Shown: piece by piece, positions 51,940 to 63,549 of the stretch
How the letters are laid out: each line of letters opens with the position of its first letter
Numbering within the stretch: position 1 is the stretch's first letter
IMG/VR virus record: IMGVR_UViG_3300008114_000042
Coordinates: 1 to 64,000 of that record
Origin: a virus
Strand: one strand, 5' to 3'
Length of the DNA: 64,000 nt
The notes under the pieces: generated by a model
Databases searched by the model: none
What the model was told of the DNA's origin: nothing
The model's input: only the letters and a program-made list of their open reading frames with translations
Program-made: the position numbers and the translations under genes

Positions 51940-52467
51940 ATGCCGGTAGACCTAGTAGCGCACCTTGATGAAGTGAACAAGGTTGCGGAAGAATACATCA
52001 AGGGAAATGATGAGACTGCCATTTCCAAGAACCTTGCTATCCCTCGCCAGCGTGTAGTCAACATGCTCAACGAGTGGCGGGATATGGTGTCCAGCAACGA
52101 GGCCATTCGCATCAGAGCGAAGGAGGCACTCGCAGGAGCAGACAAGCACTTCTCCGTGCTCATCCAAAAGGCATACGAAGTCATCGATGAGGCCACGATG
52201 AACGGGAACCTAGGCGCAAAAACTAATGCTATTAAACTTGTGATGGATATAGAGAAGACCCGCATCGAACAACTACAGAAGGCCGGTCTGCTAGAGAACA
52301 AGGAACTCGCAGACGAACTCATTGAGACAGAGCGCAAGCAGGAAGTGCTGGTAGGCATCCTCCGAGATGTCTCTGGTGAATGCCCCAAGTGCAGAAGCGA
52401 GGTTGCACGCCGACTGGCAAATGTCGCAGGACCGACAGAGGTGATTACAGTTGACATCATCACTTGA
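51940..52467 (+). CDS. HTH protein, probable terminase small subunit
   Basis: N-terminal HTH-like segment, coiled coil, CPKC; overlaps the large terminase start. Confidence 0.6.
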   Translation: MPVDLVAHLDEVNKVAEEYIKGNDETAISKNLAIPRQRVVNMLNEWRDMVSSNEAIRIRAKEALAGADKHFSVLIQKAYEVIDEATMNGNLGAKTNAIKLVMDIEKTRIEQLQKAGLLENKELADELIETERKQEVLVGILRDVSGECPKCRSEVARRLANVAGPTEVITVDIIT

Positions 52468-54250
52468 TCTATCATCATTCCTCTCTATTCTTGATGACGA
52501 CCCCTTCGATGAGTACCCGGTAGACCTAGACACCTTCGTTCATGGTGAGCACTTCCTCAACCAGCCGGGGCTGTCAGACATTCAGCGAGACATCGTAGAG
52601 GCCATGAGCCAGATATTCAAGGAGGAAGACCTTCGCAGGTTTATGACTTATGAAGAGGCGGCACGGCATCACAAGAAGTATACGAAGAATGAGGTCATCC
52701 TCCAACTAGGCAAGGGTAGTGGCAAGGACTACACATCGACCGTAGGCGTGGCCTACACCGTCTACAAGTTGCTCTGCCTCAAAGACCCCGCACGCTATTT
52801 CGGCAAGCCCTCTGGTGATGCTATCGACCTCATCAACATCGCAGTCAACGCTGTGCAGGCGAAGAACGTATTCTTCAAGGGGCTCAAGTCCAAGATCGAA
52901 CGCTCTCCGTGGTTCGAAGGGAAGTATGAAGCGAAGATGGACAGCATCGAATTCGACAAGTCGATCACCGTATACTCCGGTCACTCCGAGAGAGAATCCC
53001 ACGAGGGACTCAACCTTATCCTCGCTGTCCTTGACGAGATTTCTGGCTTTGCCATGGAGTCAGCATCAGGCAACGAGAATGCTAAGACGGGTGATGCTAT
53101 CTACAAGGCATTCCGTGGTTCGGTAGATTCACGATTCCCTGACTATGGAAAGGTTCTACTCCTATCTTTCCCTAGATTCAAGGGAGACTTTATTTCGAAA
53201 CGGTATGAGGAAGTCATCCTTGAGAAAGAGACACTAGTAAGGAAGCACACCTTCATCCTCAACCCTGATCTACCGGAAGACAGCGAGGGTAATAAGTTTA
53301 CTATTGAATGGGACGAGGATCATATCGTCCACTATGTCATCCCCGGCATCTTCGCACTCAAGCGACCAACGTGGGAGGTCAACCCTACTCGTGGGATAGA
53401 GGACTTTAAACTTGCCTTCTACACAGACCCCGGTGATGCCCTGATGCGTTTCGCCTGTATGCCTAACTTCTCTACCGATGCCTTCTTTAAGAACAGGGAT
53501 ATGCTCTGGAAGGCAGCGTCCATTCGCAACCCCATCGACACCTACAAGAGACTGGAAGAGAACTTCGTACCGAAGGAGGGAGTACGCTACTACCTCCATG
53601 CCGACCTCGCACAGGTCCACGACAAGTGTGCTATTGCTATCTCTCACGTAGAGAAGTTCGTTGAGATAAAGTCATTCAACGACTACCATCAGATCGTTCC
53701 CGTCGTTGTGTGTGATGCTGTCGTGTGGTGGGAGCCACGCAAGGAAGGGCCGGTAGACCTAAGTGAGGTCAAGAACTGGATAGTAAGTTTCAAGAGAGCA
53801 GGCTTTGACATAGGCATGGTGACCTTTGACCGCTGGCAGTCAGTAGACATTCAGAAGGAACTACAGTCGGTAGGGATCAAGACAGGGGTACTCTCTGTGG
53901 CAAAGAAGCACTACGAGGACCTTGCCATGCTCTTCTATGAAGAGCGTATTGTCATGCCCTACATCGAACTGCTCTTGGAGGAACTGGCTGAGTTGCGCAT
54001 CGTCAGCGACAAGAAGGTAGACCATCCTCGCAAGAAGAGCAAGGACCTTGCCGACGCACTCACCGGCTCTGTCTACAACGCAGTAGCCTACACCCCTCGT
54101 CACAACGATCAGTTGGTAGAGGCTCACACCTTTAGCAGCGCTGCACGAGCACGGGCACGGGAGGAAAGAGAGAATACAGAAGGCATCATCATGCCACCCA
54201 AGCGTGACCCCGAAATAGAATACTACTTGGCAAAGGTGGGAGTATTGTGA
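52451..54250 (+). CDS. terL: terminase large subunit
   Basis: GKGSGKD Walker A, AVLDE Walker B, HADLA, FDRWQS, DHP...SKDLADA. Confidence 0.9.
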   Translation: MTSSLDLSSFLSILDDDPFDEYPVDLDTFVHGEHFLNQPGLSDIQRDIVEAMSQIFKEEDLRRFMTYEEAARHHKKYTKNEVILQLGKGSGKDYTSTVGVAYTVYKLLCLKDPARYFGKPSGDAIDLINIAVNAVQAKNVFFKGLKSKIERSPWFEGKYEAKMDSIEFDKSITVYSGHSERESHEGLNLILAVLDEISGFAMESASGNENAKTGDAIYKAFRGSVDSRFPDYGKVLLLSFPRFKGDFISKRYEEVILEKETLVRKHTFILNPDLPEDSEGNKFTIEWDEDHIVHYVIPGIFALKRPTWEVNPTRGIEDFKLAFYTDPGDALMRFACMPNFSTDAFFKNRDMLWKAASIRNPIDTYKRLEENFVPKEGVRYYLHADLAQVHDKCAIAISHVEKFVEIKSFNDYHQIVPVVVCDAVVWWEPRKEGPVDLSEVKNWIVSFKRAGFDIGMVTFDRWQSVDIQKELQSVGIKTGVLSVAKKHYEDLAMLFYEERIVMPYIELLLEELAELRIVSDKKVDHPRKKSKDLADALTGSVYNAVAYTPRHNDQLVEAHTFSSAARARAREERENTEGIIMPPKRDPEIEYYLAKVGVL

Positions 54251-57987: not shown

Positions 57988-58033
57988 ACTTACCTAATAT
58001 CAGGTAATATCCACAACTACACAAAGGAGTAAT

Positions 58034-58444
58034 ATGAGTAAGGCAGCAAAGATTCTTGCTATCATCCTCATCACTTTTGGTGGCGTGTTCACACTCGTAG
58101 GAGTTTCTTCCTACCTTACCGTGGGCAACGTCCTCACAGCGCAGGCAATCACGGTTGCCGACGATGCTTCCTGTCTCGCAGGAGCAACGGTGAACAACCC
58201 ACTAGCAGCATGGTGCCAGCAGGATATCATCAACGATCACGCCCTCCATGCCACGAATGGGCTGTCATACGCACAGATGGACCGTGAGGACCCGCTACGC
58301 GAGGTTGCTATGAATGGGTCGGTGCTTCGTGCATCGCTCTTCACTAGCGTTATTGCCTTCGCTCTCAGCGCCCTCGTGGCTGTGCTTGGAGTGCTCTTCG
58401 CCCTCGTTGGCGTGACATTCCTCGTCTACAAGCCGAAGGCGTAG
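58034..58444 (+). CDS. two-TM membrane protein of an actinobacterial family
   Basis: Two hydrophobic helices around IINDHAL..T.G..YAQMDREDPLR..AMNGS.LRASLFTSV. Confidence 0.7.
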   Translation: MSKAAKILAIILITFGGVFTLVGVSSYLTVGNVLTAQAITVADDASCLAGATVNNPLAAWCQQDIINDHALHATNGLSYAQMDREDPLREVAMNGSVLRASLFTSVIAFALSALVAVLGVLFALVGVTFLVYKPKA

Positions 58445-58448
58445 GCAA

Positions 58449-58476
58449 ACTACCTGAGCATGTAGTCAAACTGCTC
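58449..58476 (+). ncRNA. compact H-type pseudoknot motif 5' of tRNA-like RNA
   Basis: ACTAC/GTAGT stem; loop GAGCA pairs with TGCTC after a CAAAC linker. Confidence 0.5.
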
Positions 58477-58480
58477 CCGC

Positions 58481-58564
58481 AGGGGAATATCGGCGCTGTC
58501 TTATAAACAGTGGATAATAATGCCGTAGCGGTCCAGTTGGGTTCAATTCCCATTTCCCCTACCA
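58481..58564 (+). tRNA. non-canonical D-arm-less tRNA-like RNA, anticodon TAT (Ile)
   Basis: AGGGGAA/TTCCCCT + ACCA; GCTGT-CTTATAA-ACAGT; TGGG-TTCAATT-CCCA; 7-nt D region, 25-nt variable region. Confidence 0.6.
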
Positions 58565-58565
58565 A

Positions 58566-58638
58566 GCCCCCGTAGTTCAGCAGATAGAACAGCGGATTTC
58601 TACTCCGTAGGTCGTGGGTGCAATTCCTACCGGGGGTA
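58566..58638 (+). tRNA. tRNA-Arg(TCT)
   Basis: Cloverleaf GCCCCCG/CGGGGGT; GCGGA-TTTCTAC-TCCGT; T-loop TGCAATT. Confidence 0.85.
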
Positions 58639-58649
58639 CAAAAATATTG

Positions 58650-58689
58650 TGGTATAATACTTGACTACAACGACCAAACCTGTTATACT
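58650..58689 (+). promoter_or_regulatory. tandem promoters (TGGTATAAT; TTGACT-N17-TATACT) in the RNA cluster
   Basis: Consensus matches. Confidence 0.65.
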
Positions 58690-58714
58690 TTACACATAAC
58701 ACAATAGCGAGTTC

Positions 58715-58804
58715 GATGGGACATAGGGACTTGTGAGGATATGTGCCTCAATAAAAACCATCCCTCCCCATCCCCTGTTGATAGTCAGGGAAAACAAAAC
58801 TATC
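58715..58804 (+). ncRNA. structured leader: nested stem-loop then H-type pseudoknot
   Basis: GATGGG/CCCATC, AGGGA/TCCCT, TGAGG/CCTCA; then CCCTG/CAGGG with loop GATAGT pairing ACTATC. Confidence 0.5.
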
Positions 58805-58807
58805 CGG

Positions 58808-58879
58808 TAGGGAGAGCCAATGGATAGGCACTTTGTCTCCAAAACAAAGCAAAACAGGGTTCGACTCCCTGCTCCCTTG
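58808..58879 (+). tRNA. tRNA-Trp(CCA), non-canonical
   Basis: AGGGAG/CTCCCT, GCC/GGC D stem, 6-bp anticodon stem CTTTGT/ACAAAG, CAGGG-TTCGACT-CCCTG. Confidence 0.7.
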
Positions 58880-58906
58880 CAAAAGATTCCAAAGTGTGGT
58901 ATAAGC

Positions 58907-58977
58907 GCTCCCTTAAGTTAATAGTAAACTGGTAGTTTTACACACTACTCACGGCGGGGCGGTACCGTCAGGGAGTA
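58907..58977 (+). tRNA. tRNA-Val(TAC), atypical T-loop
   Basis: GCTCCCT/AGGGAGT, AGTT/AACT, GTAGT-TTTACAC-ACTAC; T-loop GGCGGTA. Confidence 0.7.
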
Positions 58978-58984
58978 CGCACAA

Positions 58985-59051
58985 TGCTCTAGTTGGTACG
59001 GCGGGGTCCTCATAAGTCCCCTAGCCTTAGGTTCGAATCCTGATAGAGCAA
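58985..59051 (+). tRNA. D-arm-less tRNA-like RNA, anticodon CAT (Met or Ile2)
   Basis: TGCTCTA/TAGAGCA; GGGGTC-CTCATAA-GTCCCC; TTAGG-TTCGAAT-CCTGA; 11-nt D region. Confidence 0.6.
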
Positions 59052-59096
59052 CGGTTTCCAAGTAGCGAGCGCTTTGGAAGTGTGGTATAATGGAGT

Positions 59097-59519
59097 ATGA
59101 AAATTTGTGGAACCTGTAAAGAAGAAAAGCCAATTAGCGAGTTCTCCCTCAAAAAGGGAAAGCCCCAGTACAACTGTAAAGAATGTCATTCAAAGTATAG
59201 AAAAGCACACTACGAAAACAATAAGCAAAAATACATAGACAAGGCTGCTAAGAACAAGAAAGCATATGCCAGAGAGTATTACGACTGGCTAAGTGGCAAA
59301 TGTTGCGCTGACTGCGGGACGACAGACATAAGAGTCTTGGAACAGGACCATCTCAAAGATAAAAAGTTTAATATCTCTTTGCTAATAGGGAGGGTGAGAC
59401 TCTCTACGATGATGGAAGAATTGAATAAGTGTGAAATCGTGTGCGCCAACTGCCATATCATCCGTACCGGAGAAAGGGCGGGGTGGCTGAAACAAGAATA
59501 CTACGCGAATATAGTTTAG
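59097..59519 (+). CDS. HNH endonuclease within the tRNA cluster
   Basis: CGTC..CKEC, CADCG..DIRVLEQDH, KCEIVCANCH. Confidence 0.8.
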   Translation: MKICGTCKEEKPISEFSLKKGKPQYNCKECHSKYRKAHYENNKQKYIDKAAKNKKAYAREYYDWLSGKCCADCGTTDIRVLEQDHLKDKKFNISLLIGRVRLSTMMEELNKCEIVCANCHIIRTGERAGWLKQEYYANIV

Positions 59520-59575
59520 AGGTAGAACCAGTGATTTCCAATCATTCAGCCGGGGTTCGATTCCCCGTATTCGCT
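59505..59575 (+). tRNA. tRNA-Gly(TCC)
   Basis: GCGAATA/TATTCGC, GTGA-TTTCCAA-TCAT, CGGGG-TTCGATT-CCCCG. Confidence 0.88.
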
Positions 59576-59579
59576 CGCA

Positions 59580-59679
59580 AGGTATGGCTCAGTAATGTGA
59601 GGTGACGATGTTGATGCCTATGTCGCACATAGAGACATCGAAACAATATCATTATTCATCCCCAGCCACGCACCTACCA
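59580..59679 (+). ncRNA. unidentified rod-like structured RNA ending in ACCA
   Basis: Five nested helices: AGGT/ACCT, TGGCT/AGCCA, GTAATG/CATTAT, CGATGT/ACATCG, CTATGT/ACATAG. Confidence 0.45.
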
Positions 59680-59701
59680 AGGGTTGCCGCCCGAGGGTAG
59701 A

Positions 59702-59734
59702 GAGGGGGAGAGGTCGGCAAAGCCTCTCCCCTTC
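59702..59734 (+). terminator. terminator-like hairpin before a TGGTATAAT promoter
   Basis: GGGGAGAGG / CCTCTCCCC. Confidence 0.55.
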
Positions 59735-59793
59735 ATAATAATGGTATAATAACTCTATGTGGTGTGACGTACATCGACAGAAATTTGATTTAG

Positions 59794-60012
59794 ATGAGAA
59801 TGGATGGCCTACATGCGAGGACAAGGAGAAAGAGAAGGACTAAGAAAGTCCTTGCCCTATCTCTTGTTCTGGTTGCTGTGTGGGGGATGATACATTACCG
59901 TGTCGTCCCAGTTATGTACTACAATATTCTATGTTTCTTTGATACGGAATACAACGCAATGAGGACCGATGCAGGACACCAAGAATGTTTGGAGTCCTAT
60001 CACGAGCGATAA
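59794..60012 (+). CDS. small membrane protein
   Basis: Basic stretch then a hydrophobic helix; start uncertain. Confidence 0.45.
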   Translation: MRMDGLHARTRRKRRTKKVLALSLVLVAVWGMIHYRVVPVMYYNILCFFDTEYNAMRTDAGHQECLESYHER

Positions 60013-60064
60013 GGGGCGGGACGGATCAGACCTCCTGCCCTTTGTCTATACCTCAATATTCAAG

Positions 60065-60148
60065 GGAAGATTGGCAGAGTGGCTAATGCAGCGGCTTGCT
60101 AAGCCGTAGGTCCGTAAGGGTCCGTAGGTTCGAATCCTACATCTTCCT
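60065..60148 (+). tRNA. tRNA-Ser(GCT)
   Basis: GGAAGAT/ATCTTCC, GCGGC-TTGCTAA-GCCGT, long variable arm, GTAGG-TTCGAAT-CCTAC. Confidence 0.9.
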
Positions 60149-60226
60149 CTGTGGTTTAAAAGTGTGATACAATTGAACTGGCCTGAAACCAGTCAACGCA
60201 GGGGACCGCAATGGTTGCCCTGCCAA

Positions 60227-60299
60227 GGTCCGTTAGAGTAGCGGTAATCTCGCTTCCCTCTCAAGGAAGAGAACAGGGGTTCAAATCCCCTACGGACTA
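60227..60299 (+). tRNA. tRNA-Glu(CTC)
   Basis: GGTCCGT/ACGGACT, CTTCC-CTCTCAA-GGAAG, AGGGG-TTCAAAT-CCCCT. Confidence 0.9.
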
Positions 60300-60304
60300 C
60301 GCAA

Positions 60305-60385
60305 GGCCTAATGGTGGAACGGTATACACGCACGACTCAAAATCGTGTGCTTTGCGGCATGTGGGTTCGAATCCCACTTGGGCTA
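60305..60385 (+). tRNA. tRNA-Leu(CAA)
   Basis: GGCCTAA/TTGGGCT, CACGA-CTCAAAA-TCGTG, variable arm, GTGGG-TTCGAAT-CCCAC. Confidence 0.9.
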
Positions 60386-60477
60386 CAAATGAGAGCATCT
60401 TGTGATGCGAATAAAAGCATTCCGTAAGGTCGGAGTGCTATACTTAGAAGAATGCGCAACCAATCCAAGGAGAAATA

Positions 60478-61041
60478 ATGAAGAAGACTCTATCAGCACT
60501 AGGACTAAGTTCAATCGGATTAATCGCTGTTACGGCTACCGCACCAGCCTTCGCTACCCCGTCAGAGATGGTAACCGTCTGCCACGTTACTCCCGGCAAT
60601 TCGGTAACGCTGACTATCCCAGAGGATCAGGCCAATGGTCACCTAACAGGCAAGGCAGCAGGACACGACCTGAACGGCCCTGTAGAGGACTATCTTGGTG
60701 AGTGCAAGCCTACCCCTACGCCTACACCAACACCTACCCCAACACCTACTCCAACCCCAACGGAGACATCTACACCAACACCAGAACCAACGCCAGAGGC
60801 TACTTCGGTGAACCCGGAGGCGGCTCTACCGCTGGAAGTTCTTCCTGCCACTATTGCTGATCCCATCATGGTCAATATACCTCAGAAGGCAACCTTACCA
60901 GTAGAGGTTAATGCTGGTGGCGGGGGTAGTCAGGATGAAGGCCCATCACCATTAACACTAGTAGGACTACTACTAATGTCTGCTGGTGTGGTAACCGCAA
61001 CATTCTCCGGTATCCAGATGCTTGCTAAGCGTGGAATCTAA
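60478..61041 (+). CDS. secreted, C-terminally anchored surface protein with Pro-Thr linker
   Basis: Signal peptide (APAFA), VTVCH..GH..H domain, (PT)n, VNAGGGG, TM helix and KR tail. Confidence 0.75.
   Translation: MKKTLSALGLSSIGLIAVTATAPAFATPSEMVTVCHVTPGNSVTLTIPEDQANGHLTGKAAGHDLNGPVEDYLGECKPTPTPTPTPTPTPTPTPTETSTPTPEPTPEATSVNPEAALPLEVLPATIADPIMVNIPQKATLPVEVNAGGGGSQDEGPSPLTLVGLLLMSAGVVTATFSGIQMLAKRGI
60709..60798 (+). repeat. 6-bp-period coding repeat (Pro-Thr)
   Basis: CCNACN tandem array. Confidence 0.85.
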
Positions 61042-63257: not shown

Positions 63258-63490
63258 TGAGAAGCGATATTGACTATGATTTTGACGAGGCACTCGGTGC
63301 CCTGCGCGATGCGGAGGCTGCTGTTGAGCGTGCTCGCTACACCTATAAGGATAGCGCACCAGAGCCCATCGACCCCAAGGACATAGAGCAGGCTATTGAC
63401 AGATGTGTAGAGAACTACACAAAGATGCGTGATCGTCAGCCCACTACCGCTGAACTTGCTGATGCTATTCTGAGTGCTGTGGCCTTCTAA
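63257..63490 (+). CDS. hypothetical protein
   Basis: TAATG coupled. Confidence 0.55.
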   Translation: MRSDIDYDFDEALGALRDAEAAVERARYTYKDSAPEPIDPKDIEQAIDRCVENYTKMRDRQPTTAELADAILSAVAF

Positions 63491-63549
63491 AATATAATTC
63501 CTTTTTAAACTGTTCGTGCTATAATGCAAACGAAAATTAGTTTTTGGGA

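Follow-up and report, generated by a model that had tools for sequence, protein, structure and literature searches.

A compact H-type pseudoknot family of tailed phages, with one copy beside a tRNA-like gene and a possible role as a roadblock to 5'->3' RNA enzymes

Introduction

Downstream RNA is shielded from 5'-end-dependent decay by 5'-terminal stabilisers such as the ompA, aprE and ermC leaders and the stabiliser of phage SP82. Frameshifting pseudoknots of the luteovirus type (BWYV, ScYLV) combine a stem 1 of 5 bp with a 2-nt loop 1 whose first base is C, a single junction base and a loop 3 rich in A that probably packs into the minor groove of stem 1. Coremin (GUCCGAAGACGUUAAACUAC), a hairpin followed by a spacer, stalls Xrn1 (PMC6546385, PMC10520033). 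Its closing pair must be C-G, with U-A tolerated and G-C abolishing function (PMC6546385), and A15-A17, C18, U19 and A20 are essential (PMC10520033, PMC6546385). The loop of its first hairpin (hp1) must be YGAD or YGNNAD, and a second hairpin (hp2) must follow (PMC10520033, PMC6546385). Coremin also blocks scanning ribosomes and stimulates -1 frameshifting (PMC10520033, PMC10321173). Carriers of the coremin of xrRNA-C include BNYVV RNA3/5, cucumoviruses and other eukaryotic RNA viruses (PMC6546385, PMC10520033). The xrRNA-WCC class, taken from a frameshift screen and from Sanxia picorna-like virus 5, is characterised by Watson-Crick pairing between loop and spacer (PMC10321173). A flaviviral xrRNA also stops bacterial RNase J1 (PMC5760640), and a mechanical block of bacterial 5'->3' decay is therefore plausible.

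In the literature searched, nuclease-resistant RNAs have so far been described only for viruses of eukaryotes. No report was found on phage pseudoknot motifs or on xrRNA with RNase J in phages, and searches by motif strings returned only unrelated primers. A preliminary description of the phage DNA analysed here had proposed two H-type pseudoknots (PK1 and PK2) of the same topology a few bases upstream of two non-canonical tRNAs, and had read them as a processing or protection element for such tRNAs. We compared both structures with phage sequences from IMG/VR, with cultured phages and with the known elements named above.

The phage genome and its tRNA region

The window is the whole stretch of DNA that was analysed, 64 kb long, and forms the first part of a single-contig phage genome of 98,864 bp with 50% G+C. 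The large terminase (52451-54250) shared 58% identity with the terminases of Streptomyces BE-cluster phages and no more than 72% with those of uncultured IMG/VR contigs; in these IMG/VR relatives, the locus of PK1 and PK2 was not kept. Megablast of positions 58000-60500 against cultured phages returned no match, and a search in distant mode returned tRNA matches only. The public sequencing runs containing DNA of the phage were lake-water and 'fungus' metagenomes, and none of those listed was an RNA run. Four partial DNA runs were compared and gave only identical fragments of the phage and unrelated tRNA matches, with no variants of PK2.

The pseudoknots stand at the start of the tRNA region, where ARAGORN predicted six tRNAs (58.5-60.4 kb). 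The odd tRNA-Trp is one of the six; two other odd genes, the UAU tRNA-like one at 58481 and one at 58978-59051, were missed by the program, and Rfam matched these only weakly. The features of the locus are listed below.

58442-58444, + strand: TAG stop codon of a 136-aa ORF (58034-58444), 4 nt upstream of PK1, the commonest gap in the family
58449-58476, + strand: PK1, a canonical copy of the phage pseudoknot (stem 1, 58449-53 with 58462-66; stem 2, 58456-60 with 58472-76)
58481-58564, + strand: non-canonical UAU tRNA-like gene including the 3' ACCA, beginning 4 nt past PK1 (weak match, 23.9 bits, to the Rfam tRNA-Sec model)
58661-58689, + strand: promoter-like site TTGACT-17-TATACT with an upstream TG (consensus match only)
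58773-58804, + strand: PK2, a possible H-type pseudoknot (stem 1, 58773-77 with 58786-90; stem 2, 58780-85 with 58799-804; loop 1, UU; loop 3, AAAACAAA)
58808-58880, + strand: non-canonical tRNA-Trp(CCA) with the anticodon at position 32, beginning 3 nt past PK2 (ARAGORN; 29.8 bits with the Rfam tRNA-Sec model)

Homologues of the UAU tRNA-like gene were present in nine other IMG/VR contigs, and their acceptor and anticodon stems covary. The tRNA-Trp(CCA) has homologues in Streptomyces phage Riptide and in phage sequence L047. Judged by its sequence, the promoter-like site is likely the start of a leader of ~110 nt that contains PK2. A metagenome search with the 136-aa protein returned only three distant high-GC homologues (42-44% identity), which were bacterial-looking and without the knot, and Pfam gave nothing for the two ORFs flanking the locus.

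In PK1, ACTAC pairs with GTAGT and GAGCA with TGCTC; the pair closing stem 1 is C58453-G58462, and the loops are CU (loop 1, 58454-55), U (loop 2, 58461) and CAAAC (loop 3, 58467-71). In PK2, CCCTG pairs with CAGGG and GATAGT with ACTATC. All four helices were thus present exactly as first described, and the reported spacing of 3-4 nt to the two odd tRNAs was likewise correct. The 98.9-kb genome was then scanned for strict pseudoknots (5+5 Watson-Crick pairs, loop 1 of 1-3 nt, loop 2 of 0-2 nt and loop 3 of 3-9 nt), which gave 10 sites on the + strand and 9 on the - strand, compared with 2-11 in first-order random genomes. The chance that a strict pseudoknot ends 0-6 nt before a random position was 0.0007. 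Such interleaved repeats were rarer than had been expected beforehand.

PK1 and its family

The alignments show PK1 to be a copy of a compact H-type pseudoknot family that is found in tailed phages of many bacterial phyla and is not in Rfam. The family has the form NNNNC-CU-GAGYA-U-GNNNN-NAAAC-URCUC (28 bases). Stem 1 consists of 4-5 variable pairs and is closed on the loop side by C-G (145 of 148 copies); loop 1 is CU (or CC), a single junction base separates the stems, loop 3 ends in AAAC directly abutting stem 2, and stem 2 has five pairs of the type NNNYA/URNNN. All of these features are found in PK1, whose stem 2 (GAGCA/UGCUC) is of the commonest type. In the alignment of 148 sequences (A1), AAAC was invariant (148 of 148), CU was at least 90% conserved and all 10 pairs were changed on both sides; stem 2 was paired in 100% of the aligned copies, with double changes at all five of its pairs.

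Within the genome, the family grammar identified exactly two copies, PK1 and a copy on the minus strand at 73004-72977 (ACATC-CT-GAGTA-T-GATGT-AAAAC-TACTC). The two differ at seven positions, which correspond to three compensatory pairs (two of stem 1 and one of stem 2) and a single loop base. Covariance model R1 gave 38.0 bits (E 1.8e-7) for PK1, which was itself in the training alignment, and 41.2 bits for the minus-strand copy, with the next match at 11.9 bits. A weak R1 match at 63487-63517 was rejected, being without stem 2.

Three patterns were searched in IMG/VR, each returning at least 113 to at least 119 matching stretches. Pattern 1 consisted of 19 bases taken from PK1 and the second copy, with N at the differing positions and the 5' strand of stem 1 left outside the pattern. 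It matched at least 119 stretches (121 unique contexts), where an estimated <1 would be expected by chance. In 106 of the 121 unique matches, the three free pairs of stem 1 could form with this outside strand, against 30 when partners were permuted. For pattern 2, stem 1 and the loops were fixed and stem 2 was open; all five stem 2 positions could pair (G-U allowed) in 116 of the 139 matches listed, against 51 when permuted, and 22 different 5' strands of stem 2 were present (e.g., GAGCA/UGCUC, GGACA/UGUCC, GGUCA/UGACC and CAGCA/UGCUG). For pattern 3, both stems were fixed and the loops were open. In about 70% of the matches listed, loop 1 was CU (or CC), the junction was a single base and loop 3 had AAAC at its end; the remainder was background-like. 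The fold thereby gains support that is free of circularity. PK1 is far beyond chance: its family counts 119 or more exact matches to the pattern in IMG/VR, with covariation in both stems.

Rfam 15, with its models of PreQ1, pistol, hatchet and other pseudoknots, gave nothing at E<=10 over 58449-58476 or 58773-58804 and no match at E<=5 on the family copies in phage sequences L139, L187 and L189. The covariance-model check, empty for PK1 and for copies in other phages, agrees with the earlier statement that no known family could be assigned, and the covariation of both stems across the family bears out PK1 as a real structured RNA.

Two common variants were used in BLAST searches for cultured phages. 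Matches were obtained in phages of Staphylococcus (83 records), Mycobacterium (Labelle), Arthrobacter (Molivia), Bacillus, Moorella, Lactobacillus, Synechococcus, Nostoc, Microcystis, Paracoccus, Lentibacter and Vibrio and in the deep-sea thermophilic phage D6E; the copy in the Vibrio phage was inspected and is canonical. Bacterial and archaeal genomes (596 Gb) held only 62 matches, distributed over many phyla and mostly on MAG contigs, and the element is therefore virus-enriched. Bona fide family copies were also present in gammaproteobacterial MAGs.

PK2

The same topology had been proposed for PK1 and PK2, and this is correct, but the comparisons give no support to their being the same element. 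PK2 breaks the rules of the family in its closing pair (G-C), loop 1 (UU) and stem 2 (GAUAG(U)), and four further A stand between its AAAC and stem 2. It was missed by the family grammar and was unreported by model R1 at E<=10, and the pattern of its stem 2 and loop 3 had 0 matches in IMG/VR. The nested minimum-energy fold contains stem 1 of PK2 and leaves the 3' strand of stem 2 without a partner. In the full-length fold, the preferred partner of this strand (CUAUCC, 58800-05) is the complementary GGAUAG of the tRNA D-loop (58822-27). The context also differs, PK2 being placed in a leader behind a promoter-like site and not behind a stop codon. By these sequence comparisons, PK2 is not a member of the PK1 family and would be either a chance fold or a strongly diverged copy.

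As a chance occurrence, a strict pseudoknot 3 nt before a tRNA is only mildly unlikely (estimated at ~0.01-0.03 over ~15 tRNA-like genes). This estimate is one of the points in favour of reading PK2 as a functional relative of the family that has diverged strongly and persists in the tRNA-Trp leader, a reading we nevertheless consider rather unlikely. The layout of PK2 is that of the family (a 5-bp stem 1, a 2-nt loop 1 with a pyrimidine first, a stem 2 starting GA, a junction U and a loop 3 starting AAAAC), a family copy precedes tRNA-Trp in phage sequence L062, a decayed copy before a tRNA exists in L047, and U as the first loop base, as in the UU of PK2, is tolerated in coremin (PMC10321173). 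Against such a relationship, a closing G-C is the very change that abolishes the function of coremin (PMC6546385), and the displaced AAAC, the empty IMG/VR search, the missing R1 score and the alternative pairing with the D-loop all point the same way.

Position relative to genes and tRNAs

A total of 366 unique family copies were taken from 2.8 Mb of phage DNA. A long ORF ended upstream on the same strand in 318 of them; the other 48, including the second copy of this genome, were without a long ORF ending within 150 nt upstream. The gap between stop codon and stem 1 peaks at 4-6 nt and then tails off. In PK1 it is 4 nt. Of the 318 copies, 70 had a gap of 4-5 nt and only 2 one of 0-3 nt, and in 8 the nearest stop of a long ORF lay beyond the start of the knot. 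A gap of 4-6 nt puts the knot about as near to the stop codon as a terminating ribosome would permit. About one third of the copies stood >15 nt from any stop, and all three kinds of stop codon were used upstream. On the other side, the next start codon was 21-30 nt downstream in 101 of 283 copies. The first base after the knot was A in 72% of the copies, and the next ~10 bases were G-poor and unstructured. For the 28 nt downstream, the mean folding energy was -1.7 kcal/mol, compared with -1.5 kcal/mol for shuffled sequences, and a hairpin started within 3 nt in ~10% of the copies.

A tRNA began 4-13 nt downstream in 9 of the 366 copies (at 4-6 nt in seven of the nine), and only 13 of the 366 had a tRNA within 300 nt downstream, so that ~96% of the copies are not tRNA-adjacent. 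About 3% of the copies stand 3-6 nt before a tRNA, PK1 (4 nt) being one. The tRNAs that follow are mostly ordinary (Asp, Gly, Asn, Cys, Ser and Arg), and in Arthrobacter phage Molivia, a copy is placed between the SSB gene and tRNA-Gly. Besides the one in Molivia, independent tRNA-adjacent copies are those of L062, before an odd tRNA-Trp, of L050, before a suppressor tRNA(CUA), and of L064. For the copy in L064, ARAGORN gives a tRNA-Leu downstream, yet the sequence resembles the tRNA-Trp of L062, and the calls conflict. The decayed copy in L047 stands before tRNA-Ala and has lost the 3' strand of stem 2. The nine homologues of the UAU tRNA-like gene begin a few bases after the upstream ORF with no knot between, and the homologues of the odd tRNA-Trp in Riptide and L047 have no upstream pseudoknot. 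With family copies set aside, strict pseudoknots were found before 1-2 of 275 tRNAs, compared with 0.34 expected, and are barely enriched.

The arrangement of stop codon, 4 nt, knot, 4 nt and tRNA is thus a recurring but minority one. Since homologues of both odd tRNAs are without the knot and few copies are tRNA-adjacent, the knot is not a device for odd tRNAs; it is a general, autonomous boundary element of polycistronic phage RNA. A tie to odd tRNAs, as suggested at the outset, is not upheld, given that nearly all of the 366 copies lie away from tRNAs, that the tRNAs concerned are mostly ordinary and that the homologues are knotless.

Proposed function and alternatives

Because the core of the family matches coremin/xrRNA-WCC, which stalls Xrn1 and scanning ribosomes, we propose, with somewhat less than even confidence, that PK1 belongs to a phage family whose members would act as a one-way mechanical roadblock to 5'->3' RNA enzymes. 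The functional part by itself, a roadblock protecting downstream RNA, is perhaps more doubtful still. The enzymes halted would be RNase J, or RNase E tracking from the 5' end. Decay that sets in within the upstream cistron would be halted at the knot, which would spare the RNA on its 3' side (in this case the precursor of the UAU tRNA). From the original reading as a processing or protection element, the exonuclease block is retained as reasonable in view of the coremin-like core, and the tie to odd tRNAs is dropped. Several observations bear against the roadblock. The hairpin loop (CUGAGYAU) and the missing hp2 depart from coremin, and a mature tRNA has scarcely any need for a shielded 5' end. 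A role in translation, or the capping of the 3' end of the upstream message, would also suit the close spacing to the stop codon. Hosts in Vibrio and other gammaproteobacteria lack RNase J, to our knowledge, and family copies occur in Vibrio phages and in gammaproteobacterial MAGs; RNase J would therefore not be the sole target. In a wider version, which we think improbable, phages own an exoribonuclease-resistant RNA class, a 28-base relative of coremin that would halt RNase J or other 5'->3' enzymes at gene boundaries and, joined with RNase P cleavage as the fixed order of stop codon, knot and tRNA would indicate, would leave separately stable transcript pieces.

Two other functions at the gene boundary were weighed, and both appear unlikely to about the same degree. 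A cut by RNase P or by an endonuclease in the spacer could leave the knot as a 3'-end cap that blocks 3'->5' exonucleases on the upstream mRNA. The knot hugs the upstream stop codon (peak at 4-6 nt), its fixed distance of 3-6 nt from a tRNA would leave a very short 3' tail after an RNase P cut, and the region behind the motif is G-poor and unstructured, which suits endonuclease cleavage. Any stable hairpin would serve this purpose, however, which leaves the conserved loops and the likeness to 5'->3' blockers unexplained; the stems are short (4-5 bp), and in 48 copies, among them the second copy of this genome, no long ORF ends within 150 nt upstream. Alternatively, the knot could stand at the mRNA entry of a ribosome positioned on the stop codon and block its sliding or re-initiation, or tune termination, and so uncouple the cistrons. 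In favour of this, gaps between stop codon and knot drop off sharply below 4 nt. With the stop codon in the A site, a 4-nt gap presumably puts the first pair about at the position of the ribosomal helicase, and the knot would therefore be as near to the stop as is possible without unwinding. The effects of coremin on scanning ribosomes and on -1 frameshifting (PMC10520033, PMC10321173) are in line with such a role. Roughly a third of the copies are nevertheless >15 nt from any stop and some are without an upstream ORF, all three stops are used, no slippery heptamer precedes PK1, and copies that precede a tRNA have no downstream cistron to uncouple.

An alternative to a passive roadblock, in which a conserved protein or small ligand would dock on the family or the family would be a very small ribozyme, is quite improbable. 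The extreme conservation of loop bases across phyla (AAAC in 148 of 148 copies, CU in >=90%) and an architecture like that of small pseudoknot aptamers such as preQ1-I speak for it, but, unlike a riboswitch, the element stands ahead of unrelated genes and of tRNAs and is often present in several copies per genome; its single variable junction base offers no obvious pocket, and no ribozyme or riboswitch model of Rfam matches. The least likely of all, to which we give hardly any credence, is that PK1 and PK2 together form a dedicated device for non-canonical tRNAs (an aid to RNase P, a leader ribozyme or similar). Both knots do stand 3-4 nt before odd tRNAs, and in unrelated phages, too, tRNAs have family copies 3-6 nt ahead of them, among them the odd tRNA-Trp of L062 and the tRNA(CUA) of L050. 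The share of copies near a tRNA (13 of 366) is nevertheless about the estimated tRNA share of phage genes, those tRNAs are mostly ordinary, homologues of both odd tRNAs are knotless, PK2 is a different element, and pseudoknots from outside the family are barely enriched before tRNAs.

If the roadblock reading is true, a conserved phage relative found across many phyla carries the principle of nuclease resistance to bacteria, a portable part of 28 bases becomes available for stabilising or insulating RNA, and a very common unannotated feature of phage intergenic spacers is explained. Only one of the two knots first reported, PK1, is supported, and it abuts a tRNA by happenstance. Cultured carriers, namely, Phietavirus phages of S. 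aureus, Arthrobacter phage Molivia and Mycobacterium phage Labelle, allow direct testing.

Comparison with known elements

Other structural readings of the locus were tried and dropped. For a hammerhead, the core G8 is missing; for preQ1-I, the junction is too short and there is no Rfam match; and an intrinsic terminator would require a U tract, which is missing. A frameshift or read-through signal was dropped as well. A -1 frameshift stimulator would call for a slippery X XXY YYZ heptamer 5-9 nt upstream and a -1 frame open through the knot; the sequence before PK1 (...aag gcg TAG gcaa) has no slippery heptamer, a tRNA immediately follows, and all three stops are used.

The core of the PK1 family shares with coremin the closing C-G pair, GACGUUAAACUA/G and the pairing of loop to spacer. 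In both, a short hairpin closed by C-G is followed by a spacer (U)UAAACUA/G, of which the A-run, C and U are essential in coremin, and many phage copies have GUCC...GACGUUAAACUAC in the order of the 20-nt coremin (e.g., L102:359-390). The commonest phage variant, (C)GUC-CUGAGYAU-GAC-GUUAAACU(G/A)CUC, corresponds to the coremin stem and spacer with a longer loop and a 5-bp stem 2. Of the spacer, AAAC-U is invariant or nearly so in the phage family, and at the position of A20, PK1 has G and the minus-strand copy A. Both elements are compact and lie in untranslated spacers or beside stop codons; coremin acts without protein, and the phage element may by analogy be set beside it on that point. The phage loop, in contrast, is CUGAGCAU, with 8 nt and a 5-bp Watson-Crick stem 2, and is not YGAD or YGNNAD. 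The second loop base is G in coremin and U in >=90% of the phage copies, and hp2 (>=4 bp) is absent after the phage motif, where the 28 nt downstream are unstructured. In PK1, the acceptor helix of the tRNA 4 nt downstream may replace hp2. The phage carriers are DNA phages of bacterial hosts, and nuclease resistance may be ascribed to them by analogy. Because the loop consensus and hp2 are both missing, the family, which by analogy appears coremin-like on paper, was not filed as a member.

As in xrRNA-WCC, antiparallel Watson-Crick pairs join the hp1 loop to the spacer bases that directly follow AAA, and a true H-type pseudoknot results. In xrRNA-WCC, a 3-bp stem 2 is combined with a one-base loop 1 whose G cannot be replaced, and hp2 is needed for Xrn1 resistance (PMC10321173), whereas the phage family has a stem 2 of 5 bp, a loop 1 of CU and no hp2. 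The frameshifting pseudoknots of BWYV and ScYLV are like the phage family in all of the features given in the Introduction; the phage knot differs from them in having no slippery heptamer and no reading frame through the knot and in following all three kinds of stop codon. The ompA, aprE, ermC and SP82 stabilisers have the same role as is proposed for the phage knot, but these are simple hairpins or bound ribosomes that vary by gene, whereas the phage knot is one conserved fold across phyla.

Non-canonical tRNA genes and their leaders

The following features of the window were considered:
58481-58564, UAU tRNA-like gene
58808-58880, tRNA-Trp(CCA), anticodon at position 32
58978-59051, third non-canonical tRNA-like gene, anticodon read by eye as CAU
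58650-58660, 58894-58904 and 59080-59090, repeated motif GTGGTATAA(T/G)

At least nine further IMG/VR contigs carry members of the conserved family that includes the UAU tRNA-like gene, and covariation was found in both the acceptor stem and the anticodon stem of this family. UAUCGG is all that the gene holds in the place of the D-arm, and a conserved insert of about 22 nt, GGAU(U/A)AUAAUGCCGUA..GGUCC, is located 3' of the anticodon arm in the family. Pairing of CGG(Y) with GCCG could form around the anticodon arm of the gene.

The tRNA-Trp(CCA) has a U-U mismatch at positions 1/72 and apparently does not have the bases that join the acceptor stem to the D stem. Its D-arm, AGCCAAYGGAUAGGC, is shared with homologues at L001 1501-1574 (Streptomyces phage Riptide) and at L047 16955-17027 (another phage locus). 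CUAUCC in the leader (58800-58805), just 5' of the tRNA, is complementary to GGAUAG in the D-loop of the same tRNA (58822-58827). In the predicted fold, this pairing competes with stem 2 of PK2, the possible pseudoknot that precedes tRNA-Trp.

The third gene scored only 21.2 bits against the Rfam tRNA model and was not called by ARAGORN. The copies of GTGGTATAA(T/G) precede the tRNA-Trp leader, this third gene and a Cys-rich ORF (59097-59519), for which Pfam gave no match; the motif looks like an extended -10.

The leaders of the non-canonical tRNAs hold two additional interleaved inverted repeats capable of forming pseudoknots (58721-58750 and 58924-58948), both detected on the minus strand by the strict scan for Watson-Crick-paired pseudoknots. 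Counting these, there are four pseudoknot-capable sites in 600 nt, where the density of such sites across the genome would give about 0.1.

Pseudoknots elsewhere in the phage and in other phages

Further copies of the phage pseudoknot family that includes PK1, the pseudoknot before the UAU gene, were located as follows:
Genome 72977-73004 (L066 8977-9004, outside the window), minus strand, second family copy of the phage
L047 20780-20812, decayed family copy, 2-3 nt upstream of tRNA-Ala
L050 14172-14203, family copy, 28.3 bits with the family covariance model

The second copy in the same phage lies 160 nt beyond a 60-aa ORF, with no stop codon directly upstream. Downstream of this copy come AAAUACUUUUU, a hairpin rich in G+C and the sequence TTGACT..TATTGT, which resembles a promoter. 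In the decayed L047 copy, stem 2 has lost its 3' strand; its 5' strand is retained, as are stem 1, loop 1 and UUAAAA. The L050 copy ends 2-3 nt upstream of a suppressor-type tRNA with the anticodon CUA.

At another phage locus, L081, an H-type pseudoknot outside the family (ACGCC-UG-CUAUGG-GGCGU-GAUA-CCAUAG) was observed 4 nt upstream of tRNA-Thr. The phage carrying it has a family copy as well.
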